DNA from: Acutalibacteraceae bacterium
GTDB lineage: Bacteria; Bacillota; Clostridia; Oscillospirales; Acutalibacteraceae
Length of the DNA stretch: 25,413 nucleotides
Assembly (NCBI GenBank): GCA_051881675.1
Contig: JBJEQI010000270.1
Location: 1-25,413 of the forward strand
Direction: 5' to 3'
Positions 11,164-14,412 of this stretch are shown here, piece after piece; the first letter of the stretch is position 1; every line of letters starts with the position of its first letter. The notes under the pieces were generated by a model. The model was not told the origin of the DNA. It did no database searches and was given only the letters and a program-made list of their open reading frames with translations. The position numbers and the translations under genes were made by a program.

Positions 11164-11179
11164 GTTGGATTCGACCTTT

Positions 11180-11215
11180 CTTGTTTTATTTATAGTCAGG
11201 TAATTGCGACTGACT
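11180..11215 (-). promoter_or_regulatory. preQ1-I riboswitch, translational, resembling the Thermoanaerobacter tengcongensis type
   Basis: Minus strand AGUCAG-UCGCAAUUAC-CUGACU-AUAAAUAAAACAAG, running into the AAGAAAGG SD; same architecture as CUGGG-UCGCAGUAAC-CCCAG-UUAACAAAACAAG (recalled from memory); upstream of queT. Confidence 0.88.
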
Positions 11216-11284
11216 GTTTAGCAATATGAAATTGTAAGCGGCGAAATTCGGCGTTGCCCGCCGAACACCCGCGCGCCGCCGCGC

Positions 11285-12619
11285 TTATACGTCGGACGAC
11301 TCTGTTTCGGGCAGCTTCTCGGCGCGGACGGTTTCGATGCGCCGCTCATCCGCCTTTTCAACGGTAAAGCGGTACCCCGCGCACTCGATCGAGGGGTTCT
11401 CGCCCTCCTCGGGCAGATGCCCGAGCACCGACAGAATCAATCCGCCGATGGTATCATAATCGCCGTCGGGCAGAGTGACCGCCAGCATATCCTCCACCTC
11501 TTCGATGTCGCACACGCCGTCGATGGTGTAGGTGGTTTCATCGAGCTTGGTGATGTCCTCTTCCTCATCGTCATATTCATCCTGAATATTGCCGAGTATC
11601 GACTCTATCAGATCCTCCAGCGTCACCAGACCCGCCGTTCCGCCGTATTCGTCGATGACGACCGCCATTTGAATGTGGCGCTCGGTCATTTCCGCGAACA
11701 GCTCGCCGCACCGCTTAGATTCGGGGACATGGTACGCCTCGCGCATCAGCCCTTTCAGCGTGGCGCTTTTCGGAATCGGGCGGCCGACATAGCGCAAAAG
11801 GTCCTTCACATAAACCACGCCGACAATATCGTCCAGATCGTCGCCGTAAACGGGGATTCGCGAGAATCCCTCGCTGATTGCCAGCGCAATCACATCGCTC
11901 AGATCATCATGAATCGAAGCGGCGGTGATCTCGGTGCGGTGCTGCATAACGTCGCCTACGTCGATATCGTCAAACTCGAAAATATTGTTGATCATATCGC
12001 GCTGGCTTTCCTCAATAACGCCCTTTTCCTCGCCCGCGTCGACCAGCATACGGATTTCTTCCTCGGTGACGTTTTCATCGTTCGCTTCGGGATTCATGCC
12101 GAAAAGGCGGACCACGCCGTTCGTCGAAACGGTGAGCAAAGACACCGCAGGATAGAGCAGTTTTTTGAAAAACGTCAAGATGCCGACAACGGCAAAGCTG
12201 ATTTTCTCCGCCTTTTGCATAGCGATCTTTTTGGGAACAAGTTCGCCGAATACCAGCGAGAAATAGGAGGTGATCAGCGTGATCAGAACGACCGACACCC
12301 CATAGATAAACTGAATGAGCGACGGATCGGTAATGCCCCACCAGCCGCACAGCGCCGAGGACAGCATATCGCCGAAATTCTGCGAAGCGGCGGCAGAGGT
12401 CAAGAACCCCGCCAGTGTGACGCCGATCTGAATGGTGGACAAAAAGCGCGAGGTATCCGCGGTGAGCGCCATGATCTTTTTGGCTTTTTTGTTGCCGTTG
12501 TCTGCCATGCTCTTGATCTTATTATCGTTCAGCGTGACGATCGCCATTTCGCTCATAGCGAAAAAGGCGTTGACAAATATCAGCAGTATGAGCAATATCA
12601 GCTTCAGTGCGAGATTCAT
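11285..12619 (-). CDS. HlyC/CorC family (CNNM/DUF21 + 2 CBS + CorC domains) Mg2+/Co2+ transporter-like protein
   Basis: 'NAFFAMSEMAIV', 'FLSTIQIGVTL', 'VFGELVPKKIA', 'GFSRIPVY', 'VIDEYGGTAGLVTLEDLIESILGNIQDEYD', 'YDTIGGLIL'. Confidence 0.95.
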   Translation of the reverse strand: MNLALKLILLILLIFVNAFFAMSEMAIVTLNDNKIKSMADNGNKKAKKIMALTADTSRFLSTIQIGVTLAGFLTSAAASQNFGDMLSSALCGWWGITDPSLIQFIYGVSVVLITLITSYFSLVFGELVPKKIAMQKAEKISFAVVGILTFFKKLLYPAVSLLTVSTNGVVRLFGMNPEANDENVTEEEIRMLVDAGEEKGVIEESQRDMINNIFEFDDIDVGDVMQHRTEITAASIHDDLSDVIALAISEGFSRIPVYGDDLDDIVGVVYVKDLLRYVGRPIPKSATLKGLMREAYHVPESKRCGELFAEMTERHIQMAVVIDEYGGTAGLVTLEDLIESILGNIQDEYDDEEEDITKLDETTYTIDGVCDIEEVEDMLAVTLPDGDYDTIGGLILSVLGHLPEEGENPSIECAGYRFTVEKADERRIETVRAEKLPETESSDV

Positions 12620-12741
12620 CGGTCGCTCCCTCCTTTATCACAAAGAGGGGCTCTCACCACAAAAGCGCCGCGGCGCGCAAAGAACTCCATCTCGCCGCAA
12701 CTTCGCGGGGATGCATTATCGGTGGGGAAAGGGTCGTCCAT
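12616..12741 (-). CDS. Putative 41-aa leader peptide (MDDPFPTDNASPRSCGEMEFFARRGAFVVRAPLCDKGGSDR)
   Basis: AAGGAG SD 9 nt before ATG 12741; open frame; TGA stop overlaps the corC ATG (ATGA). Below the ORF-track size cutoff. Confidence 0.5.
   Translation of the reverse strand: MDDPFPTDNASPRSCGEMEFFARRGAFVVRAPLCDKGGSDR
12625..12651 (-). promoter_or_regulatory. Hairpin sequestering the corC Shine-Dalgarno
   Basis: Minus strand GCCCCUCUUU-GUGAU-AAAGGAGGGAGC: 10 bp with two single-base bulges covering AAAGGAGG. Confidence 0.55.
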
Positions 12742-12812
12742 TTCTGATTACTCCTTAAAATAAATATCGGCGGGTTCAGGCTCATACGCCCCGAAAACCC
12801 TATACAAAATTA

Positions 12813-12841
12813 ATAATACTATATATCCGGCGCATTGTCAA
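12813..12841 (-). promoter_or_regulatory. Sigma-A promoter for the corC leader
   Basis: TTGACA-N17-TATTAT, implying a 5' leader of about 190 nt. Confidence 0.8.
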
Positions 12842-12901
12842 TCCTAAAACCGCGGATTTTCCCAAAAAGCGGCAGAACCCGACGCCGATCGCGGCAAAGT
12901 C

Positions 12902-12929
12902 AAAAGCGGGCGCTTTATCAGCGCCCGCT
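12902..12929 (-). terminator. Intrinsic terminator after the hydrogenase gene
   Basis: AGCGGGCGCT-N5-AGCGCCCGCT perfect 10-bp stem followed by TTT on the minus strand. Confidence 0.75.
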
Positions 12930-12987
12930 CATGGCAGTATCACGGTTTTACGGGTGCGTGCGCACAATCGCGCGCGGTCCGTCGCCG

Positions 12988-14412
12988 TTATTTCAGCAAA
13001 CTGATCGCGTCGGTGATCGTCTTTTCCAGCGCTTCCTCGCCGTATTTATCGACCTCGGCCTTGTTCTTTTCGCCGTGGGTCAGGCAGCCCGCGCCGCCGA
13101 TACAGCCGCCGACGCACGCCATACCCTCGATAAAGTTGCCGGGGAGCACGTTCTTGGACGCTTTCAGCAGCGCCATGCGGCACTGCTCGATACCGTCGCA
13201 GGGAACGGCTTTCAGCTCGAAATCGTCCAAGCCCTGCTCCTTGAGCGCCTGCGCGACCGCGTCGGACAGGCCGCCGCTGCGGGCAAAGATTCTGCCGTAA
13301 TACGACGCATTATCGAGGTAGTCCTCCTCCAGCGTCGTGATGTCAATATCCTTGCCGTCAAGAAGCGCCTGAAGCTCCTCAAAGGTAATGGTCGAGTCGA
13401 TATACTGCTTCAGCTCCTCGCGCGAGAATTCGGCTTTTTTCGCCGTACACGGCCCGATAAACACGATCTTCGCGTCGGGAGTCGTTTCTTTGATATATTT
13501 CGCGATGGTCGCCGCGGGCGAGAGATTATGCGAGATATGCTCGTTCAGCGCGGGGAACGCCTTATGGATATAGTCGACAAACGCGGGGCAGCAGCTGCTG
13601 GTCAGAAATCCCTTTTCGGTCAGCTCGCGCGCCTCGGCATAGGCGACCATATCCGCGCCGAGCGCCGCCTCGACCACGGTGAAGAAGCCCAGCTCCTTGA
13701 TGCCCGAAATGACCTGCCCGAGCTTGGCATACTGAAACTGGCTGGAGATCGAGGGCGCGACCAGTGCAAACAGCTTGTAATTTTTATTATTATCGCTTTT
13801 TTGAATCAGGTCGATGACGTTGAGGATAAAGGATTTATCCATGATCGCGCCGAACGGGCACTGATAGACGCACGCGCCGCAGGAAATGCACTTGGAATTA
13901 TCGATCGCCGCGGCTTTGGACTCGTCCATCGTGATCGCTTTCACCTTGCAGGCGCGCTCGCAGGGGCGCTTGTTGTTGGCGATCGCGGAATAAGGGCAAA
14001 CCTTGGCGCACATACCGCATTCGACGCATTTGGTCTTGTCGATGATCGCTTTCTGATTGCTGTCAAACGAGATCGCGCCTTTTTTGCAGGCGTCCTGACA
14101 GCGGTGCGCGATACATCCGCGGCAGGCGTTTGTCACCTCATAGCCGCCGACGGGGCACTCATCGCAGGCAATGTTAATACATTCCACAATGTTCGGGTTG
14201 TTCTTATCGCCGCCCATGGCGAGCTTGATGCGCTCCTGAACGATCGCGCGCTCCTTGTAAACGCAGCAGCGCATGGTCGGCGTTTTGCCGGGAACGATCG
14301 TTTTCGGAATGTCGTTGACCGTTTCAAGCAGCTGCCCGCGGAATGCCTGGCGGGCGACCTCACGGAGAACTTTATATTTCAGATACTGTACCTGTGTGTC
14401 AAATTTTCTCAT
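12988..14412 (-). CDS. Monomeric [FeFe]-hydrogenase, group B type (HfsD-like position)
   Basis: H-cluster motifs TSSCCPAF, IGPCTAKKAE, EGMACVGGCIGG; N-terminal ferredoxin motifs CRGCIAHRCQDAC, CVECGMCAKVCP, CISCGACVYQCP. Confidence 0.92.
   Translation of the reverse strand: MRKFDTQVQYLKYKVLREVARQAFRGQLLETVNDIPKTIVPGKTPTMRCCVYKERAIVQERIKLAMGGDKNNPNIVECINIACDECPVGGYEVTNACRGCIAHRCQDACKKGAISFDSNQKAIIDKTKCVECGMCAKVCPYSAIANNKRPCERACKVKAITMDESKAAAIDNSKCISCGACVYQCPFGAIMDKSFILNVIDLIQKSDNNKNYKLFALVAPSISSQFQYAKLGQVISGIKELGFFTVVEAALGADMVAYAEARELTEKGFLTSSCCPAFVDYIHKAFPALNEHISHNLSPAATIAKYIKETTPDAKIVFIGPCTAKKAEFSREELKQYIDSTITFEELQALLDGKDIDITTLEEDYLDNASYYGRIFARSGGLSDAVAQALKEQGLDDFELKAVPCDGIEQCRMALLKASKNVLPGNFIEGMACVGGCIGGAGCLTHGEKNKAEVDKYGEEALEKTITDAISLLK

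Follow-up and report, generated by a model that had tools for sequence, protein, structure and literature searches.

A leader peptide, probably the detached N-terminus of the transporter itself, precedes a CNNM/CorB-type transporter gene in uncultured Acutalibacteraceae

The window considered here is the whole 25,413-nucleotide stretch of contig JBJEQI010000270.1 (positions 1 to 25,413; assembly GCA_051881675.1) from an Acutalibacteraceae bacterium, and it carries a transporter gene of the CNNM/CorB type (corC) immediately preceded by a short upstream open reading frame (uORF). There is high confidence that this uORF is real, translated and under selection as a leader, and that it descends from the transporter's own N-terminus. 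It begins with a run rich in Asp, Glu or Pro (a DE/P motif), which may serve as a cation sensor acting on the ribosome, and its stop codon lies at the start of the transporter gene. The elements that bear directly on this finding are as follows, and these, as with all elements of the feature, lie on the minus strand.

12616..12741, minus strand: leader uORF of 41 codons plus stop, starting MDDPFPTD, with its TGA (12618..12616) overlapping the CorC ATG as ATGA
12718..12738, minus strand: N-terminal DE/P motif D-D-P-F-P-T-D, codons 2-8 of the uORF, the proposed sensor
12751..12756, minus strand: Shine-Dalgarno (SD) sequence of the uORF, AAGGAG, 9 nt 5' of the uORF ATG (12741)
12641..12650, minus strand: anti-SD arm CCCCUCUUUG within the uORF, predicted to pair with the transporter SD with a probability of about 1.0
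12628..12636, minus strand: transporter SD AAAGGAGGG, 8 nt 5' of the CorC ATG (9 nt from its GGAGG core), predicted to be sequestered in a hairpin
11285..12619, minus strand: CNNM/CorB-type transporter gene, 444 aa, beginning directly at the first transmembrane segment (TM1)

The origin of the leader is apparent from a comparison of CorC loci drawn from 41 related genomes, metagenome contigs, GTDB representative genomes and the contigs that encode the closest database proteins. Most related loci, 167 of 195, have a transporter ORF that starts M-[DE]-D-P-[GD]-P, in frame with TM1 either directly or through a linker of 10-30 residues. Among the proteins nearest to that of the window (59-99% identity), the ORF begins at TM1 and a separate upstream ORF of 19-48 codons starts M-[DE]-[DE]-P-[YLF]-P-[AT]-[DE], such that the mature transporter of this split clade is devoid of the DE/P motif entirely and is taken to work without it. 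Because the same motif forms the transporter N-terminus in all sister clades, the leader peptide is, on this comparative evidence, the split-off ancestral N-terminus. A maximum-likelihood tree of 93 non-redundant proteins places the 12 split loci together with L118, a locus that keeps the gene and has lost the uORF, in one clade with an approximate likelihood ratio (SH-aLRT) support of 99, nested within fused clades, and this topology is consistent with a single split that was then retained for a long time. The ancestral protein would have carried M-D-D-P-x-P at its extreme N-terminus, followed by a variable linker and then TM1; one lineage of the Acutalibacteraceae would later have lost the continuity of the frame, with a new SD and start codon arising directly before TM1 and the old N-terminus persisting as a uORF. 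The earlier note on this DNA, which was made from the sequence alone, had held that orthologues with MDDP fused to CorC would speak for a frameshift or assembly artefact. Such orthologues do exist, but what they reveal is where the uORF came from, since the split is monophyletic and is found in 12 species and in four assemblies of the window's species.

Among 69 non-redundant fused loci, the first [DE]P falls at residues 2-4 in 64, whereas anything from 11 to 42 residues separates the initiating Met from TM1, and this fixed position at a variable distance ties the motif to the start codon rather than to the membrane domain. Some fused loci, including L171, L148 and L174, bear extensions of 25-42 residues with a second D-P motif before TM1 (...TDPDTGVLIP, ...STDPLSIV), which suggests a tandem duplication of the N-terminal segment and is a possible precursor state of the split. 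A more distant orthologue (L024 of genome G031, 46% identical) has an SD-preceded uORF starting MSDSDPGAGN approximately 70-190 nt upstream of its CNNM start; this uORF ends about 70 nt before the main start, is followed by a short GC hairpin and a U-run, and may represent another detached acidic leader.

The reality of the uORF is supported first by its persistence. It is present in 12 of the 13 members of one Acutalibacteraceae CorC clade (the window's locus, L002/L121, L111-L117, L119, L120/L122 and L147, with L118 as the exception) and is always open; a test for such conservation among orthologues had been proposed in the earlier note. No stop codon interrupts the uORF frame in 310 codons over 11 species, compared with 8 and 28 stops in the other two frames (36 in total), and at this empirical stop rate the probability of a frame open throughout by chance is about 1e-8 by our own arithmetic. 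Small SD-preceded ORFs with an acidic start are also concentrated in the 200 nt preceding TM1, where their density is about 40-fold that of the remainder of these loci. The organisms of the split clade are uncultured members of the Acutalibacteraceae (Oscillospirales), and the window's species is found in pig-gut metagenomes. An isolate genome is represented among the related loci, with a locus (L159) of the fused type; a scan of metagenomes with the CorC protein returned no new members of the split clade, the best matches being only 62% identical and all fused.

A reading in which the two ORFs are one gene, divided in appearance by an assembly error or joined in the cell by programmed frameshifting, might draw on the many orthologues that carry the motif fused in frame and on the frameshifted contig of one fused-type species. 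This is extremely unlikely. Four assemblies of the window's species, from four sequencing runs in four pig-gut studies, cover 12450..12950 and contain no indel in 12616..12841, and their independent agreement argues that the split is not an assembly error. In one of these strains the uORF carries two synonymous changes and an E-F to N-V swap in its unconserved middle. Moreover, 12 species keep the split, and a GGAGG-type SD stands 9-10 nt before the ATG or GTG of the main ORF in all 10 leaders compared. Programmed frameshifting was rejected on the conservation of this SD and start codon, on the lack of a slippery heptamer at the junction and on the different frame relation of the two ORFs in L112. 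The frameshifted contig itself (L098, from a metagenome) breaks soon after the onset of TM1, reading MDDPDPGNLIFQ... before an early stop, and is either a sequencing error or a pseudogene.

Selection on the leader is confined to its start. Across 10 species, the proportion of synonymous differences (pS) at codons 2-8 is near saturation at 0.62 while that of nonsynonymous differences (pN) is 0.18 (pN/pS 0.28); as third positions vary freely and pN is low, the constraint falls on the amino acids and not on an RNA motif. The ratio rises to 0.87 at codons 9-18 and the remaining peptide is unconstrained, so that only the 8 N-terminal residues are kept across the clade, the length being variable (19-41 residues) and the rest unalignable. 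Within the conserved segment, the acidic residues of codons 2, 3 and 8 carry more of the signal than proline does. The emphasis that the earlier note had placed on proline and elongation factor P (EF-P) is accordingly not borne out: the uORF start holds no PP motif, and L112 and L114 have lost the P-x-P spacing (L114 retains one Pro) while both keep D2-D3, which points to acidity, and hence to intrinsic ribosome destabilization (IRD), as the conserved signal rather than to EF-P or proline.

Nascent chains of this composition have been characterized in Escherichia coli, where an N-terminal DE/P motif is defined by at least four Asp, Glu or Pro among the six residues after Met and IRD aborts translation while the exit tunnel is still empty, the more so at low Mg2+ and without bL31 (Chadani et al. 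2021). Only 10 of 4187 E. coli ORFs qualify (Chadani et al. 2021), and such clusters are comparably scarce in the window's genome (4 of 1142 SD-supported ORFs). The window's D-D-P-F-P-T, with four of six, and 9 of the 11 clade uORFs satisfy this definition. That an eight-residue acidic start is selected both when fused and when detached argues that the motif acts on the ribosome and not in the mature protein, and its selection after detachment leaves a purely structural or topological role unable to explain its retention. In this respect the locus constitutes a natural experiment, with the same motif kept within a transporter and as a separate ORF.

Selection at the peptide level could also be taken to indicate that the uORF product (24-41 aa) functions in trans as a small protein, with the cytoplasmic CBS or CorC domains of the transporter as one conceivable target, and a S/T-x-R-[LS]-C stretch is common to the window's closest relatives as well. 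A product of which only eight residues are conserved, with variable length and an unalignable remainder, and which matches no Pfam or NCBIfam family, accords poorly with such a function. The known structures of CorB and CorC have an N-out topology. The ancestral tail was thus extracytoplasmic, and its former contacts would be out of reach of a peptide in the cytoplasm, all of which makes a role in trans quite improbable.

The position of the uORF is that of a coupled leader, with its stop at the main start and the main ribosome-binding site (RBS) inside the uORF. In the 12 loci, uORF stop and main start are arranged as ATGA (four loci), TGATG (one), a 10-nt overlap (six) or a 17-nt overlap (one), a range of -2 to +17, and the overlap persists despite indels and the one change of frame in L112. 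The transporter SD of the window has a predicted probability of being unpaired of 0.13, compared with 0.44 +/- 0.16 when the upstream part is shuffled, in keeping with the hairpin that had been described as burying it. Opening the main RBS of the window would cost 14.5 kcal/mol (shuffled 10.0 +/- 2.9, p 0.09) and opening the uORF RBS 6.4 kcal/mol, and the main RBS is the costlier of the two in all 11 leaders (8-17 versus 3.4-7.7 kcal/mol). Species differ in what the SD or start codon is predicted to pair with: in the window it is a nearby anti-SD, in the congeneric genome G001 the D-P-L codons, and in the MDDPYPAD subclade the P-A-D codons, which form a long-range helix with the region of the main start.

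These same features would suit a simpler arrangement, in which the uORF is a relic kept to open the RBS and deliver ribosomes, a constitutive enhancement of translation that senses nothing. The stop/start overlap and sequestered main RBS fit such coupling, the YoaL-MgpA pair offers a precedent for positive coupling with no demonstrated signal, and L118 has dispensed with the uORF while keeping the gene. Coupling of this kind would need no particular peptide, yet it is the peptide's first residues that are held under constraint while the rest is free, and the residues conserved are exactly those of the rare DE/P class; coupling without sensing is thus rather unlikely, if still to be reckoned with.

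The long-range helix of the subclade invites an opposite logic, whereby a ribosome that pauses on D-D-P-x-P would hold open a helix between codons 6-8 and the main start, so that slow translation would turn the transporter on. In L113, L115, L116, L119 and L120 the minimum free energy (MFE) structure indeed joins CCUGCUGA, from the P-A-D codons, to the region that holds the main start and the uORF stop, and in three of these five the main start codon has a probability of being unpaired of 0.00-0.01. In the window, however, the SD is predicted to pair locally and no such helix is obtained; both arms of the helix are also under coding constraint, covariation is not demonstrable, and an exporter raised at low Mg2+ would work against the cell should Mg2+ be what it carries. 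This opposite logic seems improbable.

The leader as a whole forms its own transcription unit, given that the gene upstream, for an Fe-hydrogenase, is closed by an intrinsic terminator. Transcription is predicted to start near 12806, which gives a leader of about 187 nt up to the CorC ATG (12619). The near-consensus promoter, the leader of about 190 nt and the 41-codon uORF with its own AAGGAG SD, MDDPFP start and ATG-overlapping stop were thus correctly recognised in the earlier note. In relatives, including L002, promoters of the type TTGACA-17-TAnnnT and of equal strength precede the uORF. The further elements of this unit and its border are listed here.

12904..12930, minus strand: intrinsic terminator of the Fe-hydrogenase gene, an 11-bp stem with 8 GC pairs followed by a T-run
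12813..12841, minus strand: sigma-70-type promoter TTGACA-17-TATTAT, 11 of 12 consensus matches
12772..12800, minus strand: 5'-proximal hairpin GGGUU...AACCC, present in MFE and centroid structures
12707..12701 with 12682..12676, minus strand: complementary segments of an alternative helix, CGCGAAG/CUUUGCG
12698..12693 with 12675..12670, minus strand: complementary segments of a second alternative helix, GCGGCG/CGCCGC

The 5' hairpin and the mutually exclusive GC helices had been presented as parts of a switch. The sequences are present, and the 5' hairpin is invariant among the four strain assemblies, where it is possibly an mRNA-stabilising stem-loop; neither it nor the mid-uORF helices have a counterpart in G001 or in other relatives, and the fold of the whole leader is no better than that of shuffled sequences (z = -0.32). 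These structures are, as far as the comparison with relatives allows, species-specific and carry no evidential weight. Transcription attenuation, with the position of the ribosome on the uORF choosing between the two helices, would find in this leader the complementary segments, a weak terminator-like site at 12680..12668 (a 5-bp stem and then CGCUUUUGUG) and the example of a paralogous clade that combines an acidic uORF with a strong terminator. The stems of those paralogous terminators reach 11-18 bp and -20 to -31 kcal/mol, to which nothing in the window is similar, and the helices occupy a central part of the uORF that is not conserved, within a leader that folds as shuffled sequence does; attenuation is very improbable here. 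An attenuator of the MgtL type is consequently not recognised in the leader, which offers neither conserved helices nor consensus pairs nor a terminator stronger than this weak site. Searched at gathering score, the whole window matches no Rfam 15 family, and a relaxed search of 12500..13000 at E-values of up to 10 yields only chance-level hits (Xoo2, CRISPR-DR23); the M-box and yybP-ykoY riboswitches, for which a search had been advised, are not among them. The output of the uORF is best explained at present by the stop/start overlap and unmasking of the RBS, not by alternative helices.

The mechanism that these features suggest, gating by ribosome survival, would begin with ribosomes loading at the accessible uORF RBS. 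Their passage through the first eight residues, rich in Asp, Glu and Pro, would destabilise them while the exit tunnel is empty, and at low free Mg2+ or total cation many would abort early. Those that survive would melt the anti-SD/SD hairpin and terminate at the ATGA, whereupon reinitiation would follow at the transporter start, or other ribosomes would enter there. Output of the exporter would be proportional to ribosome survival through the motif, and the exporter would be made when cytoplasmic Mg2+ is ample; in the fused relatives the same gate would act directly inside the ORF. Abortive translation, the dependence on Mg2+, positive coupling and Mg2+ as substrate are all inferred, and the whole mechanism, inclusive of cation-dependent abortion, is in our judgement the best reading at hand and about as likely as not.

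Several observations weigh against this gate. Two of the uORFs fall short of the DE/P definition (L112 with only 2 of 6 residues and L114 with 3 of 6), and in the split clade a bulky residue (F, L or Y) occupies position 5, whereas bulky residues close to the motif are reported to counteract IRD (Chadani et al. 2021). The sequestration of the main RBS relative to shuffled flanks is moderate (Stouffer z 3.0 and Fisher p 0.007, among sequences that are related), and RNAalifold found no consensus pairs in the last 55 nt of 11 leaders with 15 nt of the main ORF, these being too diverged to align; the covarying anti-SD for which a test had been suggested was not seen. The main ORF also has a strong and well-spaced SD, from which independent initiation is possible whenever the hairpin breathes. 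Acidic N-termini of the fused proteins may in addition serve N-out membrane insertion, and part of the family-wide enrichment may be structural. Finally, the substrate could be a polyamine or another cation, as the transporter scores below the cut-offs of both the PaeA and the CorB models.

Comparison with known systems places the proposed gate among leader peptides of Mg2+ transport. The paradigm is MgtL (MEPDPT), in which the EPDP motif gives Mg2+-sensitive abortive translation (Chadani et al. 2021), and the likeness to MgtL drawn in the earlier note is apt: both are short leader ORFs before the gene of a known or putative Mg2+ transporter, both have a D/E/P-rich start (MEPDPT and MDDPFPTD), and in both translation of the motif is the proposed read-out of Mg2+ through IRD. 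In contrast, MgtL turns on an importer (mgtA of Salmonella and E. coli) at low Mg2+ through an alternative leader RNA and transcription termination, whereas the window's target is of the exporter type, its output would run through stop/start overlap and SD occlusion, and its logic would be inverted; conserved alternative helices are missing from the window, and homology cannot be claimed for such short peptides. The inverse logic is itself plausible but not new, since the N-terminus of the E. coli CorC protein YbeX aborts translation and high Mg2+ was proposed to relieve this and to raise efflux (Chadani et al. 2021). YbeX shares with the locus an acidic start on a CorC-domain efflux factor, and its arrangement is resembled by the window's fused relatives, but it is a soluble CBS-CorC protein with its motif, MSDDNSHSSDT, inside the ORF, while the window's motif lies in a detached and coupled uORF before a membrane CNNM protein.

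A precedent for the output is mgtQ, in which acidic, ribosome-destabilising codons govern a sequestered mgtB RBS (Choi et al. 2021; PMC8092293). As is proposed for the window's leader, mgtQ is a very short uORF in which such codons decide the release of the RBS, and its action is purely translational; unlike it, mgtQ has 8 codons, is intergenic within an operon and promotes an importer at low Mg2+, with abortion as the activating event, where completion is proposed to activate in the window. The YoaL leader of mgpA (yoaE) in E. coli and Salmonella is another ORF that overlaps the region upstream of a cation-efflux gene with a CorC domain, and changing the YoaL start codon to a stop lowers MgpA translation. 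The membrane domain of MgpA is, however, TerC and not CNNM, no signal is known, and no relation of YoaL to the MgpA N-terminus has been reported. Salmonella corB, corC and mgpA are induced by high Mg2+. As to how Mg2+ exporters are switched on at high Mg2+, E. coli ybeX supplies only a hypothesis from N-terminal ribosome destabilization. A search of the literature for CNNM leader peptides in Firmicutes retrieved only papers on Salmonella and E. coli, and nothing was found on Rv1842c with a uORF.

The downstream gene is, by the domains of its predicted product, a CNNM/CorB-type transporter: the 444-aa protein matches Pfam CNNM (6e-53), the CBS pair (2e-15) and CorC_HlyC (2e-25), and the closest solved structures are archaeal CorB (7m1u/7m1t) and the TM domain of TpCorC (7cff). 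The NCBIfam equivalog cut-offs are not reached for PaeA (238 versus 500 bits), CorB-type PRK11573 (188 versus 475) or GldE (262 versus 376), and the protein is a putative Mg2+ exporter. The window's genome, an assembly 88.7% complete, holds a CorA gene (contig C172) and, at the edge of contig C183, a second CNNM paralogue whose N-terminus is cut off; neither an M-box riboswitch nor MgtE was found in it.

Acidic starts extend beyond this clade. Of 150 representatives of family clusters at 50% identity, 24 carry four or more Asp, Glu or Pro among the six N-terminal residues considered, a number that rises to 58 for three or more, and the second CNNM paralogue of the Oscillospirales is also acidic at its start (MD[ST]DS and similar). 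In a paralogous CNNM clade (family f16, loci L211-L217), Asp-rich uORFs (MDGDSCDPD, MDSGSSDDD, MDNAEEDE) located approximately 60-240 nt upstream enter a strong terminator whose stem, 11-18 bp long, is predicted at -20 to -31 kcal/mol and shows compensatory changes; a U5 tail follows it. Three species (L211-L213) have uORFs that continue beyond the terminator and either overlap the main start as ATGA or stop 5 nt short of it; the terminator of L214, with a loop of more than 8 nt, was identified by folding segments separately. Sister species have a fused N-terminus instead, MDSPGSIPL. These leaders are like that of the window in their acidic start, gene family and bacterial order, and unlike it in that they end in or read through a strong terminator, as in transcription attenuation, while the window's clade uses overlap; they would appear to represent the same sensor joined to a different output module.

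Taken with the split locus, the fused forms and the terminator-linked paralogue leaders suggest a broad regulatory theme for CNNM genes. A tentative extension, possible but on balance doubtful, is that the acidic N-terminal motif is an ancient and portable module of bacterial CNNM exporters by which the ribosome acts as cation sensor, in cis and during translation, in three deployments: inside the ORF, in an overlap-coupled uORF, and in a uORF that runs into a terminator. Were this so, such a module would provide many bacteria with a general route to raise the efflux of Mg2+ or other cations when the cytoplasm is cation-replete. Independently of this extension, the locus provides, in about 190 nt, a compact cassette on which control by IRD could be examined in Gram-positive gut anaerobes.

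Downstream of corC, the order corC-queT is conserved, and the interval between the two genes (11175-11216, minus strand) contains a hairpin with a stem of 5-6 bp (GUCAG/CUGAC), a 10-nt loop and an A-rich tail that leads into the queT SD, almost invariant in nine species of the clade. It has no Rfam match and receives no score from the preQ1 model RF00522, although we take it to resemble a riboswitch of the preQ1-I type, such as the aptamer of T. tengcongensis. Directly past the corC stop (11244-11266, minus strand) lies a terminator-like hairpin, TTCGGCG-GGCAA-CGCCGAA followed by TTTCGCC, on account of which queT is probably governed by a control region of its own and not simply co-translated with corC.

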